Assembly: GCF_001642725.1 (NCBI RefSeq)
Contig: NZ_LSUQ01000012.1
Coordinates: 1-58,168, forward strand
From: Ferroacidibacillus organovorans
Lineage (GTDB): Bacteria; Bacillota; Bacilli; Alicyclobacillales; SLC66
Reading direction: 5' to 3'
DNA: 58,168 nucleotides
This document shows, in pieces, positions 20,296-26,281 of this stretch. Within the stretch, counting starts at the first letter, position 1, and each line of letters starts with the position of its first letter. The position numbers were made by a program, and so were the translations under genes. The notes beneath the pieces were generated by a model. The model was not told where the DNA came from, made no database searches, and saw nothing but the letters and a program-made list of their open reading frames with translations.

Positions 20296-21186
20296 TTAAA
20301 AAACGCGCTCTGTTAAAAGGTATGCGAGATCAATCAGCGTGCTCGCCTCCAAGTCAAGGTTTGGTTCCTGAATCGCATTGACCGCTCGCTGTGTGAGTTC
20401 CTTTACACGGTCTCGCGCACCAGCAAGGCCATAGCGCGCTGGGTATGTAGCCTTTTGCAGCGCGAGATCGGCACCAGTCTGTTTTCCTAGAAGCAAGACG
20501 TCCCCCGTGACATCCAAAATGTCATCCTGAATTTGAAACGCCAGCCCGATCGACTCCGCATAAATCGTAAGGGCGCATAACGTCTCCTGATTGACTTCGG
20601 CTGCGAGCGCGCCCATGCGCACAGACGCGCGCAAAAGGGCGCCTGTTTTTTTCGCGTGAATCTCCACAAGCTGTTCATCCGTAATACGCTTTCCCTCTGC
20701 CAAGAGGTCAAGCATTTGGCCCGCCACCATACCGCGCGCCCCGCTCGCCTGGGAAAGCTCACGTACGAGAAACAAACGCGTCTGCGCGTCAACCTCGGTG
20801 AGCAAGATGGTTTCAAATGCGAGCGTAAGTAGCGCGTCCCCCGCAAGAATGGCGGTCGCCTCATCAAATTGTTTATGGTTTGTCAGTTTACCGCGACGAT
20901 AGTCATCATTATCCATTGCCGGCAAATCATCGTGTATGAGTGAATAGGTGTGGATCATCTCAACTGCGCAGGCAGTTGGCAGTACACGATCGATAGGCAG
21001 CCCGCACGCGCGCGCCGTCATGAGAAGCAGTGTGGGTCGGAGTCGTTTTCCGCCGCCAAGCAAACTATACGTCATGGCATCAAGCAAACGCGCGGCGCTC
21101 AAACTCCGCTCAGGGAGAAACGAGAGAAGCGATTTCTCAATGACATCACGCATCTGGCTCCATTGCTGCTCCACCGTCTGAATCAA
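20296..21186 (-). CDS. ispA: geranyltranstransferase (farnesyl diphosphate synthase)
   Basis: GGKRLRP, HTYSLIHDDLPAMD, FQIQDDILD. Confidence 0.96.
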   Translation of the reverse strand: MIQTVEQQWSQMRDVIEKSLLSFLPERSLSAARLLDAMTYSLLGGGKRLRPTLLLMTARACGLPIDRVLPTACAVEMIHTYSLIHDDLPAMDNDDYRRGKLTNHKQFDEATAILAGDALLTLAFETILLTEVDAQTRLFLVRELSQASGARGMVAGQMLDLLAEGKRITDEQLVEIHAKKTGALLRASVRMGALAAEVNQETLCALTIYAESIGLAFQIQDDILDVTGDVLLLGKQTGADLALQKATYPARYGLAGARDRVKELTQRAVNAIQEPNLDLEASTLIDLAYLLTERVF

Positions 21187-21467
21187 CCCTTGATCTCCTC
21201 CACCAAAAACGCAGTGCGTAAAAGTTCCCCTTTTGAAGATGTGACCTGCTCAACGCGCTGTTCTGCATTCTGCAGACGCGCTCGGCAAATTCCGACCAAT
21301 TGCATTCCCTCCTGATAGGTTGAAAGAGCCGCATCCAGTGACAATTCGCCACTCTCAAGCATTCTCACAACCTCTTCAAGTCGCGCCAGCGCCGACTCAA
21401 AGGGCACCTGTTGTTCATCAAGAGACGAAGATGTCGCTTGATCAGCGTCGTTCTCCTGTTGCTTCAT
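21183..21467 (-). CDS. xseB: exodeoxyribonuclease VII small subunit
   Basis: FESALARLEEVVRMLESGELSL..YQEG. Confidence 0.93.
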   Translation of the reverse strand: MKQQENDADQATSSSLDEQQVPFESALARLEEVVRMLESGELSLDAALSTYQEGMQLVGICRARLQNAEQRVEQVTSSKGELLRTAFLVEEIKG

Positions 21468-22806
21468 CGTCAAAAACCCCCCATACCTGGCAGTCCAGCG
21501 TGCCATCCATCATACGCAGTGTCACAGCATCCCCTGGTTGCACTTGCGCGATGGACGTAATCACCTGTTCATCCTTTTTTCTACTCTGAACAACCGCGTA
21601 CCCGCGATCGAGTACCGCCAACGGATTGAGCAATTCGAGATACGCATTTGCCCGCGTGATCCTTTGGTGCGCAGCCTCAAGAAACCTTTGCAGCGCTCGC
21701 TCATGGCGCTCTGTCAAGTGGTCAAGCGTTCGTCTCATTTGTGCGACGCGGTCAAACGGGGCACTTTTCGAAAGGCGAAGCTCCAGACCATCCAAGCGGC
21801 GGACAGCTCCCGAAATTCGACCTTTCACACCGCCGTCGAGTTGTCGCTCCAGATGATCAACACGCTGATGAAACCCGTCAAACGCGCGCAGCGGTTCTGC
21901 GAGGACTTGGCGTGAAGCCACCCGCTCAAATCGGGCGTACGCCTGTTTGATATGCAGGGTCACGGTAGATGTCATGCGCGTCTGCGCCTGTTCAAGGTGA
22001 TGAAGTAGCGCACCGCCATCCGGCGTCGCGAGTTCCGCCGCGCCAGTCGGCGTAGGCGCGCGCCGGTCGGCGACAAAATCGGCAAGCGTCACATCAGTCT
22101 CGTGACCGACCGCAGAAATGACCGGGATGCGCGATGACGCGATAGCGCGCACAACCAATTCTGAACTAAACGCAAACAGTTCCTCAAAGGAACCGCCGCC
22201 TCGCCCTACGATCATCACATCCGCAAGGTTGTGATCGGATATGAGCCGAATACCCTCCGCGATCTGTACAGATGCCTCCGCGCCTTGAACCGCCACCGGC
22301 ACGATCACGACTTCCGTGAGCGGAAAGCGTCTGCCAAGCGTTGTCAGCATATCGCGAACCGCCGCACCAGTCGGCGACGTGACGAGTGCGATGCGGGTAG
22401 GAAACGTCGGCAATGCGTGCTTGCGCGACGCTTCGAACAGACCTTCTGCCTGCAATTTTTCTTTTAACTGCTCATACGCGATATAAAGTGCGCCAACGCC
22501 GTCTGGCACAATTTCATCCGCATACATTTGATATTCGCCTGAACGTTCAAACACGTCGATAGAGCCCTTCACGACCACACTCATGCCATCGCGCAATTCG
22601 ACGCGCAAGGCGCGCGTACGACTGACAAACATGACCACTTTAACGCGCGATAGTGCATCTTTTAATGTAAAATAGAGATGCCCACTCTGCGGCTTACTAA
22701 AATTCGAAATCTCACCGCGCACAGATACGTTTTGCAAATCAGGCGTGCGCGTGAGGACGGTCTTCACGGTTTGCGTCAATTCAAAAACACTGAGGACACG
22801 TTCCAT
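21442..22806 (-). CDS. xseA: exodeoxyribonuclease VII large subunit
   Basis: GEISN, SGHLYFTLKD, GRGGGS, SAVGHETD, APTPT. Confidence 0.97.
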   Translation of the reverse strand: MERVLSVFELTQTVKTVLTRTPDLQNVSVRGEISNFSKPQSGHLYFTLKDALSRVKVVMFVSRTRALRVELRDGMSVVVKGSIDVFERSGEYQMYADEIVPDGVGALYIAYEQLKEKLQAEGLFEASRKHALPTFPTRIALVTSPTGAAVRDMLTTLGRRFPLTEVVIVPVAVQGAEASVQIAEGIRLISDHNLADVMIVGRGGGSFEELFAFSSELVVRAIASSRIPVISAVGHETDVTLADFVADRRAPTPTGAAELATPDGGALLHHLEQAQTRMTSTVTLHIKQAYARFERVASRQVLAEPLRAFDGFHQRVDHLERQLDGGVKGRISGAVRRLDGLELRLSKSAPFDRVAQMRRTLDHLTERHERALQRFLEAAHQRITRANAYLELLNPLAVLDRGYAVVQSRKKDEQVITSIAQVQPGDAVTLRMMDGTLDCQVWGVFDDEATGERR

Positions 22807-22819
22807 GGAAAAAAACCCC

Positions 22820-23668
22820 TTACCCCTGCTGTTGCATCTGTGCCGCGCGCACCGTGTTTGACAACAGCATCGCGATGGTCATTGGACCCACGCCTTTTGG
22901 AACGGGCGTGATTTTTGAAGCGACAGATTCAACCGATGAAAAATCGACATCTCCACAAATTTTACCATCGACGCGATTGATACCTACATCGATGACGACA
23001 GCGCCTTTTTTTACATCATCGGCTGTTACAAACCGCGGGATTCCAACCGCCGCGACGAGCAGATCCGCCTGTCTCGTCCAATCGCGCATGTTTTTTGTTC
23101 GAGAGTGACAAATGGTCACGGTGGCGTTTGCCTGTAAAAGAAGATTGGCCATCGGTTTACCTACGATGTTTGAGCGCCCGATGACTACCGCATGCATTCC
23201 TGCAAGATCAATCTGCTCATAGCGTAGAAGCTCCATAACGCCAAGCGGTGTACAAGGCACCATGCGGTTCGTTCCAATCGAAAGTGCGCCAACATTCCGC
23301 TCATGAAAACCGTCCACATCTTTTTCAAACGCGACGCGCGCTACTACGCGTTGTTCGTTCATGTGCGCCGGGAGCGGCAATTGCACCAGAATGCCGTGTA
23401 CGAGCGGATCTTGATTCAACCGATCAAGCGTGTCAAGAATGACTTGCTCCTCTGTTTCCGCCGGAAAACGCATGATGTCAGACGCGATGCCAACACTCTG
23501 TGCGGCCTTCTCTTTCCCGCGGACATAGCTCGCGGATGCGGGATGATCCCCGATCAGTAGAACAACGAGGTGCGGCGTGACTCCCTCTTTTTTTAAGGCA
23601 TGTACCTTTTGCGCTGTCTCTTGACGGCTGATATCCGCCCAGTGAGCACCATCAATGATCGTTCCGAT
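22820..23668 (-). CDS. folD: bifunctional methylenetetrahydrofolate dehydrogenase/cyclohydrolase (282 aa, apparent ATC start)
   Basis: The frame extends 65 codons upstream of the ORF-track Met (GTIIDG..ASASYVRGK) to an ATC, preceded by an in-frame TGA and a GGAGG RBS. GILVQLPLP, KDVDG, PCTP, GRSNIVGKP, GVGPMT. Confidence 0.95.
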   Translation of the reverse strand: MGTIIDGAHWADISRQETAQKVHALKKEGVTPHLVVLLIGDHPASASYVRGKEKAAQSVGIASDIMRFPAETEEQVILDTLDRLNQDPLVHGILVQLPLPAHMNEQRVVARVAFEKDVDGFHERNVGALSIGTNRMVPCTPLGVMELLRYEQIDLAGMHAVVIGRSNIVGKPMANLLLQANATVTICHSRTKNMRDWTRQADLLVAAVGIPRFVTADDVKKGAVVIDVGINRVDGKICGDVDFSSVESVASKITPVPKGVGPMTIAMLLSNTVRAAQMQQQG

Positions 23669-23691
23669 TCAAATCCCCTCCATACGGCTCA

Positions 23692-23717
23692 GGGGCGATC
23701 ACAACTGCGATCGCCCC
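23692..23717. terminator. hairpin between FNR and folD (no U-tract)
   Basis: GGGGCGATC-N8-GATCGCCCC. Confidence 0.5.
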
Positions 23718-23722
23718 ATCAC

Positions 23723-24739
23723 TCAACCTTTGCGACTGCTGCTGTGCCCCGGATGCAGCTTTGAAGCTGGGTCAAGATAGATTTTTGCGTGATTGACAGC
23801 CGTTGGCGCTTCGCCAAATCCTGTCGCTATCAACTTGATCTTACCTGGATACGTCACGATATCCCCCGCTGCAAAAACGCCAGGAATGTTTGTCCCCATT
23901 CGAGTGTCCACAACGATCGCATTATCCTCAATCGTAAGGCCCCAATTGAGAATCGGGCCAAGCGATGCGGAGAAGCCCAAACTGCTCACAATCGCGTCAG
24001 CTTCAACCCGAATCGTTTCCTTGCTGCGATTCTCGACGAGCGTCACGTGCGACAGCCAATTCTCACCCTCAAGCGCTTGAACTTCATAGAACGTTTTTAC
24101 GTCGACGCCCGAAGCGTGAAGCGTCTTTACATTTTCTTCGTGCGCCCTAAACTGATCGCGGCGATGCACAAGAATAACCTGCTTTGCTACATGCTCGAGC
24201 ATCAATGCGAAATCAACCGCGCTATCTCCGCCACCGACGACCACGACGCGCTTACCTGTAAACTTTTTCATGTCATCAACATAATAATAAATACCTTTGC
24301 CTTCAAACGCTTTGGCATTAGAAACCGGAAGCGGCTTCGGGGTGAATGCGCCAATCCCACCTGTAATGATCACTGTTTTTGAATAGTGAACACCGCGATC
24401 CGTGGTTAACTCAAACACTTGGTCGTCACGTTTGACAAGTCCGGTCACTTTCTCACTCAAACAAAGGGTCGGGTGGTACTGTTTCGTTTGTTCAACAAGT
24501 TGATCAACCAAATCCATTGCCTTGACTTTGGGAAATCCGGCCACATCGTAAATGTACTTTTCCGGGTACAATTCTGAGAGTTGCCCTCCGAGTTGCGGGA
24601 GGCTATCGATAATCTTTGTACTCGCATCGCGAATGCCTGCGTAAAACGCAGTAAAAAGTCCAGTTGGGCCGCCGCCAATCACTGTGATATCATAGACTTT
24701 CGTATCAGTGCGATCCTTAACTTCCATCGGTGTTGACAT
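23723..24739 (-). CDS. ferredoxin/flavodoxin-NADP+ reductase (YumC/TrxB-like)
   Basis: IGGGPTG, GGQLSELYPEKYIYDVAG, GGGDSA, VHRR, AAGD, HSSS tail; no CxxC. Confidence 0.92.
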   Translation of the reverse strand: MSTPMEVKDRTDTKVYDITVIGGGPTGLFTAFYAGIRDASTKIIDSLPQLGGQLSELYPEKYIYDVAGFPKVKAMDLVDQLVEQTKQYHPTLCLSEKVTGLVKRDDQVFELTTDRGVHYSKTVIITGGIGAFTPKPLPVSNAKAFEGKGIYYYVDDMKKFTGKRVVVVGGGDSAVDFALMLEHVAKQVILVHRRDQFRAHEENVKTLHASGVDVKTFYEVQALEGENWLSHVTLVENRSKETIRVEADAIVSSLGFSASLGPILNWGLTIEDNAIVVDTRMGTNIPGVFAAGDIVTYPGKIKLIATGFGEAPTAVNHAKIYLDPASKLHPGHSSSRKG

Positions 24740-24857
24740 CTTCCGTCCCCTCCAGATCACGTAAAAATACGATCATGCACGCGAGTAGTATACTACAGGA
24801 TTCTACTGTGACGATATCTCGCGTCTTTGAACAAAAATCGCGAGTGTCACGCAGGTG

Positions 24858-25844
24858 TCACAAAGGATTCTGCCACGCCGCGAGTAACGCCACCCCGTAC
24901 GCATTGTCAGAAGCATAGAATGGATCGCACAGTTGAAGGTCAATCGCGCCGTGTCCGCTGTTCTGAACAAAAAACCGTTTTTGCAAGCGGTTTTTGATGC
25001 GTTGATTTGAAGCGACCCCACCCACGAGCAAGACGCGGCGTGTTCCTGTTTTTTCAACGGCGAAACGAATCATCTTTTCAAAGGTATTGGCAATCACGCG
25101 GAAAACAGATGCCGCAAGTTGTGCATCCGTTACGTTAGCGTTGCGCGCACGCTCAAGCGCCGCGAGTGGACCTGAAAAGCTTGGAGAACCTTGCTTTACC
25201 ACACTCGGCAATTCGAGCAGTGGAAGATCGTCCGGGTGCGCCTGCGCCAATACCTCAAGCTTTGCGCCCGCCGGAAATGGCAATCCGAGACTGACACCTA
25301 TGCGATCAACAAATTGCCCGACATGCAGATCAAGGCTAGAACCGAGTGTTTCGACACAAAAATCGCTTCCGTCAAACGAGACGTGAAGCAAATCGGTCGT
25401 ACCACCCGATGCGTGGATCGCGAGAAAGGGCTGAACCCCCCCATCACGCATCCACCCCACCGTCTTTACGCCGGCTGCCAAATGACCGGATTGATGGGAT
25501 GTTTTTAAGCATTCCACGCCAGCCCCTAGCGCCAGCGCCTCCGCCCCCAAACGTCCCGCGAGAAACACAGGCATATAAGAACCCGCGATTCTGCGCGGCG
25601 CGTCGCTACACGCGATGCCTGCGATCCATTTCCCCTCTAGGTGTTCCGAACAAGCTAAAAAAAAGGACGGCAGTCTCTGAACATGCTGAAACAGCGCCTC
25701 AGACTGGCGAAGACCGCGCGCGCCGTTTGGCACATCAAGGAGAAGGCGTTTCTCAAAAACGATGTCCCCGCTTGCCGATACAGCACAAAAAGAGGTCGTG
25801 TAATTGCTAGTGTCAAGACCGATAAAAATCGCGGCGTCCCTCAT
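24858..25844 (-). CDS. TsaD/Kae1 (glycoprotease family) paralog
   Basis: GLDTSNYTTS, HQSGH, SGGTTD, GQFVDRIG, GGVASN, SDNA. Confidence 0.85.
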   Translation of the reverse strand: MRDAAIFIGLDTSNYTTSFCAVSASGDIVFEKRLLLDVPNGARGLRQSEALFQHVQRLPSFFLACSEHLEGKWIAGIACSDAPRRIAGSYMPVFLAGRLGAEALALGAGVECLKTSHQSGHLAAGVKTVGWMRDGGVQPFLAIHASGGTTDLLHVSFDGSDFCVETLGSSLDLHVGQFVDRIGVSLGLPFPAGAKLEVLAQAHPDDLPLLELPSVVKQGSPSFSGPLAALERARNANVTDAQLAASVFRVIANTFEKMIRFAVEKTGTRRVLLVGGVASNQRIKNRLQKRFFVQNSGHGAIDLQLCDPFYASDNAYGVALLAAWQNPL

Positions 25845-26281
25845 GGTGTTTGACCGTTTACCTGAGTCTCGCCGTGAAGATCTGACAGATCGCGCAGCAC
25901 TCCTGCGAGTACGCCGTTGACAAAGCGCGCAGAACGCTCCGTGCCGTAGGTCTTAGACAATTCAACAGCCTCGTTCATCGCGACAGCAGGTGGGATATCT
26001 TGTCCATAGAGCAATTCAAACGCACCGATGCGAAGAATGTTGCGATCAACGCCGGGCATCCGATCCACGTCCCAATCCTGACTATAGCGATCGAGAATTT
26101 TATCAATCATTTCTTGATGATCTGTAATGCCGTTCATCAACTGCGCCAGATACGTTTCATCGTAATCAATGCTCTCAATCATTGCGCGTGTCATTGCGAC
26201 AGCTTGCTCCCACTCGACACGGTTCAAATCTAAATGATAGAGCGCTTGCAACGCCAATTCCCTCGAGCCGTGACGACTCAT
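25841..26281 (-). CDS. nusB: transcription antitermination factor NusB
   Basis: SRELALQALY, DRNILR, NEAVELSKTY, FVNGVL. Confidence 0.97.
   Translation of the reverse strand: MSRHGSRELALQALYHLDLNRVEWEQAVAMTRAMIESIDYDETYLAQLMNGITDHQEMIDKILDRYSQDWDVDRMPGVDRNILRIGAFELLYGQDIPPAVAMNEAVELSKTYGTERSARFVNGVLAGVLRDLSDLHGETQVNGQTP

Follow-up and report, generated by a model that had tools for sequence, protein, structure and literature searches.

The folD gene of Ferroacidibacillus organovorans most likely begins at a real near-cognate start codon, ATC, that is conserved in the sister species of the genus. Within the window, i.e. the whole stretch of 58,168 nucleotides that was analysed (contig NZ_LSUQ01000012.1), the folD coding sequence occupies positions 22820..23668 of the minus strand, and its frame comprises 282 codons from ATC 23668 to a TAA stop (22822-22820). 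The proposed initiation codon (23666..23668) is preceded by a Shine-Dalgarno (SD) core, GGAGG (23681-23677, minus strand), and by a spacer of 8 nt, GGATTTGA, that ends with an in-frame TGA (23671-23669) abutting the ATC and barring any upstream start in this species. After the ATC, the minus strand reads GGA ACG ATC ATT GAT GGT, and the frame is translated as a stop followed by IGTIIDG (IGTIIDGAHW... from the ATC onwards).

We infer, with a probability of about 0.8 for the explanation as a whole, that ribosomes initiate on the near-cognate AUC at 23668. The usual initiator tRNA, with its CAU anticodon, would read this codon with a third-base mismatch, being positioned on it by the GGAGG located 8 nt upstream, and the product would be a full-length FolD of 282 residues, fMet-Gly-Thr-Ile-Ile-Asp-Gly.... 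The ATC would have replaced a canonical start in the ancestor shared by the two species and would have been kept since then. Like other AUH starts, it would lower the yield of FolD per mRNA and render its synthesis IF3-sensitive.

The initial annotation had described this start site as GGAGG, an 8-nt gap, an in-frame TGA, ATC 23668 and (M)GTIIDG, a description that the minus-strand letters bear out and that re-reading of the sequence found accurate throughout. The same holds for its statement that no in-frame ATG, GTG or TTG occurs over 65 codons, a span that contains YVRGK (residues 48-52; 23513..23527, minus strand). Indeed, the first in-frame canonical start is the ATG of codon 66 (23471..23473, beginning at 23473 on the minus strand), downstream of YVRGK, and some automatic gene calls use it to give a protein of 217 aa. 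YVRGK corresponds to the YxxxK motif of the N-terminal, catalytic domain of FolD. Runs of 65 codons devoid of in-frame ATG, GTG and TTG are infrequent in this genome without being exceptional (60 of 8,251 coding windows, 0.7%), and the sister-species folD has a TTG at codon 25, a GTG at codon 35 and a TTG at codon 38. The canonical-free stretch is a mild and unconserved oddity; it is the codon at the start position that counts. An out-of-frame mini-ORF overlapping the site (TTG 23672 AAT CGG AAC GAT CAT TGA), also pointed out at that stage, does exist in the window but not in the sister species, where this place reads TTT CAC.

Further evidence comes from the comparison of folD 5' regions, which had been proposed in the initial annotation and was carried out on 127 loci drawn from 40 relatives and two public collections. 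Setting aside 26 loci whose match began after query residue 12 left 101 loci. A canonical start lies 3-8 codons before the conserved DG motif in 95 of them and only farther off in five, which include the sister species and two loci resembling longer, non-bacterial-type N-termini; the window folD is the only one of the 101 without any canonical start. The codon homologous to ATC 23668 is ATG in nine, GTG in four, TTG in three and ATC in one of the 17 other loci of the family, the single ATC being that of the sister species. Thus, all 16 family loci from outside the genus carry a canonical codon at exactly this position. The sister species (the same-genus genome G001) reads GGAGGG, ATTTCAC, ATC GGA ACG ATC ATC GAT GGC, and therefore has CAC in place of the TGA, while the gap of 8 nt from GGAGG is the same. 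The two FolD proteins share 89% identity and the genes are separated by a dS of about 1. As two species of the genus were compared, the conservation of the ATC corresponds to one comparison. No further member of the genus was found among 57 loci from public genome contigs (best identity 57%) and 40 loci from metagenome contigs (best identity 56%), and these two sets served only as a background of start codons.

The reading frame upstream of codon 66 behaves as a part of the gene. Both Pfam domains are complete: THF_DHG_CYH (PF00763) covers residues 5-119 (profile 1-115 of 115, E 8.9e-38) and THF_DHG_CYH_C (PF02882), the NAD(P)-binding domain, covers residues 122-279 (profile 1-159 of 160, E 2.4e-70). 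The alignment of the window and sister-species genes is free of gaps, both keep an uninterrupted frame of 282 codons, and YVRGK is identical in the two proteins. Codons 1-65 show 8, 4 and 25 differences at positions 1, 2 and 3, respectively, with a dN/dS of 0.11 (dS 0.85), and codons 66-282 have a dN/dS of 0.05 (dS 1.09). Codons 1-65 thus evolve as coding sequence under purifying selection. The FolD encoded by this frame resembles canonical bacterial FolD in its two complete domains, its length of 282 aa, its x-x-x-I-I-D-G N-terminus, its YxxxK motif and the folD-xseA-xseB-ispA gene order; it differs in its initiation codon and in a genus-specific hairpin located between the upstream gene and the SD.

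The gene is also single. The window genome (96.8% complete) contains one folD, the only other match being a stretch of 46 residues (E 7e-4), and the sister-species genome likewise contains one. Neither genome has a match to formate-THF ligase (Fhs, PF01268), and both encode Fmt. Since folD is single and Fhs gives no match, FolD is the only evident source of 10-formyl-THF. The single copy and the selection acting on the gene (dN/dS 0.05-0.11) both support a functional folD. The initial annotation had envisaged a recent mutation, with ATG in all relatives and another intact folD in the genome; on the contrary, the sister species has ATC and folD is unique.

Taken together, the canonical starts at the homologous position, the GGAGG 8 nt upstream, the TGA that leaves no alternative, the ATC of the sister species and the selection on the N-terminal 65 codons make ATC 23668 the best candidate for the folD start codon on sequence grounds. 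Some data do not fit easily with it. The figure of about 1-2% of AUG given by E. coli reporters for AUC seems low for the sole FolD of a cell, and the conservation of the ATC relies on a single pair of species. Furthermore, no compensation is visible in the SD: the folD SD/anti-SD duplex has an energy of -9.8 kcal/mol (-11.3 in the sister species), i.e. it is not stronger than those of relatives (-7.5 to -14.9 kcal/mol). Finally, the sister species has an in-frame TTG 8 codons upstream of its ATC, which is used by a newer NCBI model of 290 aa and speaks against an ATC start shared by both species. However, this TTG lies at the foot of the hairpin and no GGAGG-type SD precedes it; in the window, the corresponding frame is closed, so that a 282-aa model shared by both species would be the more economical one.

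The ATC could, in principle, be an error of sequencing or assembly hiding an ATG. The Logan contigs of four runs from four studies (one isolate-labelled run and metagenomes from sediment, mine drainage and air) span 23660-23683 with no differing letter and no indel; the assembly may derive from the isolate-labelled and sediment runs, which would then not be independent of it, and the mine-drainage and air runs carry no such mark. No RNA data set is listed among those that contain the stretch. As these contigs agree and as the ATC is also found in the separate assembly of the sister species, an error is very unlikely, to the point of being negligible. Moreover, the NCBI protein of a second strain (P0121) has the same extent of 282 aa. 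Initiation could also occur within the same frame but slightly downstream, at ATC 23659 (codon 4) or ATT 23656 (codon 5), two in-frame AUH codons that are kept as ATC ATC in the sister species. These codons are 17 and 20 nt from GGAGG, versus 8 nt for codon 1, and relatives start at the codon homologous to 23668, which makes the use of either of them improbable.

Two further readings would deprive ATC 23668 of any role as a start codon. Automatic gene callers give a truncated protein of 217 residues starting at ATG 23473 (P0122, on 7 contigs, and P0123), and folD could be either this shorter gene or a decaying pseudogene; a start at this internal Met had also been envisaged in the initial annotation. 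The coding-type divergence of codons 1-65, with its excess of third-position changes and its dN/dS of 0.11, argues against both, and the 217-aa form would lose about half of the catalytic domain, including its beginning and YVRGK. With a 282-codon frame intact in both species, no second folD and no Fhs match, such a truncation or decay is very improbable. Recoding is even less probable, i.e. it is hardly credible, although the two small frames that it would need exist and the genome has a tRNA-Sec: translation would start at ATG 23683 and read through TGA 23671, or start at TTG 23672 and undergo a +1 shift at CAT-TGA. The ATG, the TGA and the TTG are all missing from the sister species. Furthermore, ATG 23683 (ATG GAG GGG ATT TGA) overlaps the SD, has no SD of its own and is CAG in the sister species, TTG 23672 is just 4 nt from GGAGG, and the predicted fold has no stable hairpin right after the TGA. 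Selenocysteine insertion or read-through at TGA 23671 and a +1 shift from TTG 23672 were rejected, as the codons involved are not conserved in the sister species.

An AUC start read by the standard machinery agrees with the tRNA content of the genome. Its 54 tRNAs include two standard initiator tRNA-CAU genes, and none among the 54 is an initiator-like tRNA with another anticodon. The IF3 of the genus, compared with those of 19 relatives, shows a single lineage-specific change at a conserved position, A142V. In E. coli reporters, AUA, AUC, AUU and CUG initiate at 1-2% of AUG (0.02-3% with other constructs), and an AUC-started sfGFP carried an N-terminal Met (preprint 10.1101/063800). The folD start would resemble these AUC reporters (Hecht et al., preprint 10.1101/063800) and the AUU start of E. 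coli pcnB in being an AUH start with an output in the percent range of AUG and an N-terminal Met; the efficiencies given by this source, by contrast, are those of E. coli and not those of a Bacillota ribosome on the folD leader. A sole and probably essential enzyme that depends on a codon working at about 1-2% of AUG (the E. coli figure) would thus provide a natural test of AUC efficiency in Bacillota.

The ATC start is already implicit in existing annotation and the call itself is not new, since the NCBI entries for both species include 282-residue M-GTIIDG proteins that begin at that codon, those of this species (P0001 and P0121) coming from two strains. Except at residue 1, the sister-species FolD is identical to a protein that NCBI assigns to Ferroacidibacillus organovorans. 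Alongside these, public collections contain 217-aa calls from the internal ATG (P0122, P0123) and the 290-aa call for the sister species. Gene callers restricted to canonical start codons cut FolD down to 217 aa and thereby lose the start of the catalytic domain. The 290-aa model is probably over-extended; the in-frame TGA of the window genome favours the 282-aa form. No paper on a non-canonical or ATC start of a bacterial folD was found in the open-access literature among the matches listed, and the papers on ATC/AUC start codons among these matches mostly deal with mitochondria or eukaryotes.

The folD gene does not seem to be an isolated case: at least seven genes of this genome, folD included, appear to start at ATC or ATT. 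They were sought by scanning the whole genome for stretches that look coding but precede the first canonical start, folD ranking first, and the candidates were followed up by Pfam searches and by comparison with relatives. For fabH (L137:310-318, contig C90 of G000), the apparent start is the ATT in TTAGGAGCTG ATC ATA ATT, the sister species (L186) having ATC ACA ATT; the homologous codon is ATG or GTG in all nine family orthologues, behind a shared TTAGGAGCTGAT, and the first canonical codon of the open frame is found only 28 codons into it. In a gene of the FtsW/RodA/SpoVE family, hereafter ftsW-like (L133:1516-1521, minus strand, contig C1), GGAGGTAGGG leads into ATC ATC, a canonical start is lacking over 30 codons, and residue 17 is the first of the Pfam domain. 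Both species have GGAGGT and then ATC ATC, and all 18 other loci have ATG or GTG. In the sister-species copy (L166), a T9 run shifts the frame about 15 codons in, which corresponds either to a homopolymer error or to a real frameshift. A gene encoding a secreted protein with a signal-peptide-like N-terminus (L206:1060-1065, minus strand, contig C6) likewise carries GGAGGTGCTCC and then ATC ATC in both species, with a GGAGG SD, and its four relatives all have ATG, GTG or TTG.

Other weak starts appear to extend beyond the genus. The gene of a ccpN-like HTH_11+CBS repressor (L132:934-936, minus strand, contig C26) shows AGGTGA, ACCCCT and then an ATC that is the same in the sister species; its HTH domain starts at residue 8 and its first canonical codon is codon 43. 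Among its relatives (L150-L164), two other genera (G004 and G007) are also devoid of a canonical start before their ATC, and seven genomes of a neighbouring family have a TTG 6 codons upstream, without an evident SD. A metallophosphoesterase gene (L205:994-996, minus strand, contig C7) seems to start at ATT in this genome and at ATC in that of the sister species. In five genera (relatives L208-L212), AAGGGGGCAAG-N3-ATT follows a conserved TGGTACAAT (-10-like) element, a pattern that points to a long maintenance of this weak start. A marR-like gene may also start at ATC in both species, this case being less certain. Finally, infC has its classical ATT start in this genome, 9 nt after GGAGG, and its start codon is ATT, ATC or ATA, and never canonical at that place, across 21 genomes of the order.

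SD motifs are enriched before such codons. Among codons that precede the first canonical start by 8 codons or more, a strict SD precedes 12 of 324 in-frame ATC versus 168 of 14,169 codons of all kinds (odds ratio 3.4, one-sided Fisher p 5e-4), a test that counts codons rather than genes, counts adjacent ATC ATC pairs twice and includes folD among the matches. The value for ATC, ATT and ATA together is 20 of 755 (odds ratio 2.4, p 6e-4), with self-chosen thresholds and after trials of three gap settings and six codon groups. No enrichment was found before CTG or ACG upstream of the first canonical start. About nine of the 16 ORFs that contain the 20 SD-preceded AUH codons were judged, by inspection only, to be false positives: rbgA-like, rpiB-like and cyclophilin-like candidates offer a better canonical start a short way downstream, and the extensions of others look non-coding.

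The low efficiency of AUH codons raises the question of a regulatory use of the folD start. FolD makes the 10-formyl-THF used by Fmt, and the initial annotation had suggested that a weak, IF3-sensitive start could link folD translation to initiation fidelity. Under such a scheme, the level of FolD, alone or with that of the products of other AUH genes, would be set by IF3 level or initiation fidelity and looped to the supply of formyl-THF for fMet-tRNA. In addition to the low AUH efficiency, the literature provides two elements that make a feedback loop through an AUC start conceivable: IF3 rejects weak third-base pairs (PMC10158994), and the E. coli folD mutation G122D relaxes initiation fidelity, FolD interacting genetically with IF3 and RRF (PMC7949028). 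The classical ATT start of infC in this genome, the persistence of the folD ATC across a dS of about 1, and the drift of the metallophosphoesterase start between ATT and ATC without a return to ATG are also in line with a regulatory device. Such a device nevertheless seems unlikely. The other AUH-start genes are functionally unrelated, and all 16 family relatives outside the genus have canonical folD starts. Published counts of start switches on short branches (one AUG-to-AUU and two AUG-to-CUG of 61,358; PMC5622118), scaled to the long branch of the genus, could yield a handful of such starts by drift, a rough estimate that was not computed. A design specific to folD is further disfavoured by an IF3 that differs at A142V only and by an SD that is no stronger than those of relatives. 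As ATC or ATT seems to serve as the start of at least five unrelated genes as well (six with the less certain marR-like gene), no folD-specific logic seems to be needed and the IF3/formyl-THF link proposed for folD is weakened.

A related and improbable idea is that the AUH starts of folD, fabH, the ftsW-like and ccpN-like genes and others constitute an IF3-tuned set, whose translation would move together with IF3 activity and fidelity. If this were true, low formyl-THF would relax fidelity, which would increase AUC initiation and hence FolD, forming a homeostatic loop. The known systems are only partly comparable. Like the infC start, that of folD is an in-frame AUH that follows a strong SD and a nearby in-frame stop and is conserved between species; however, the folD AUH is restricted to a single genus, the gene encodes a metabolic enzyme rather than an initiation factor, and any autoregulation would be hypothetical. 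The work on E. coli FolD and one-carbon control (PMC7949028) deals with the same enzyme, supplying 10-formyl-THF to Fmt, and indicates that lower activity relaxes initiator selection; as cited here, it concerns the effect of FolD activity on fidelity and not the start codon of folD itself, and the AUC loop is speculation. More generally, the AUH-start genes of this 3-Mb genome, at least seven in number and including three that would be genus-specific replacements of canonical starts, would offer a set of natural leaders bearing on the question of whether such starts are tolerated drift or a co-regulated class.

The leader of folD includes a G+C-rich hairpin (23692..23717, minus strand) that separates the SD from the stop codon of the preceding gene. 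The initial annotation had placed a GC hairpin just upstream of folD, and this structure is real, with an 11-pair stem and an AGUU loop in both the MFE and the centroid structures. The sister species retains it, the differences lying close to the loop. In several relatives, only about 15-25 nt separate the folD start from the stop of this preceding gene, which encodes an FNR-like flavoprotein (Pyr_redox_2; 23723..24760, minus strand, in the window), and this short gap indicates that the hairpin is a genus-specific insertion in an operon junction. It may act as a partial terminator, in 3'-end protection or as a processing site. It was rejected as a terminator, being devoid of a T-tract and not called terminator-like, and as a repeated element, since the genome contains a single copy. 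Sequestration of the SD and start codon was also rejected: the energy of the leader fold is not unusual (z -1.34) and the centroid structure leaves the SD and the ATC unpaired. An Rfam scan of 22500-25000 with E up to 1 gave no match, and hence no ZTP, THF or other known leader.

The FNR-like gene is the direct upstream neighbour of folD in several relatives too, and the two genes are probably co-transcribed. The sole promoter-like match on the minus strand (24814-24787) lies upstream of the FNR-like gene and is not above chance; between 22700 and 24900, promoter-like matches number 2 for 2.1 expected by chance and terminator-like ones 3 for 2.4. On the minus strand, positions 20296-26281 of the window carry nusB, a TsaD/Kae1-like gene, the FNR-like flavoprotein gene, folD, xseA, xseB and ispA, with two genes between nusB and folD. 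The stop codon of the FNR-like gene and two further TGA codons fall in the folD frame.

Two other features were observed in the genome. The palindrome GCGATCGC, found for example at 23695-23702 of the window, is present in 293 copies genome-wide versus about 54 expected from base composition, an excess that may reflect codon usage (Ala-Ile-Ala). In a DsbA-like gene (L131:298-300, contig C3), an in-frame TGA replaces the codon of the first Cys of CPFC, giving MKFKFRIYSDYI-U-PFCH; the Pfam DSBA match begins at profile position 11, right after the TGA, and a small hairpin then follows. As the genome has a tRNA-Sec, this gene probably encodes a selenoprotein.
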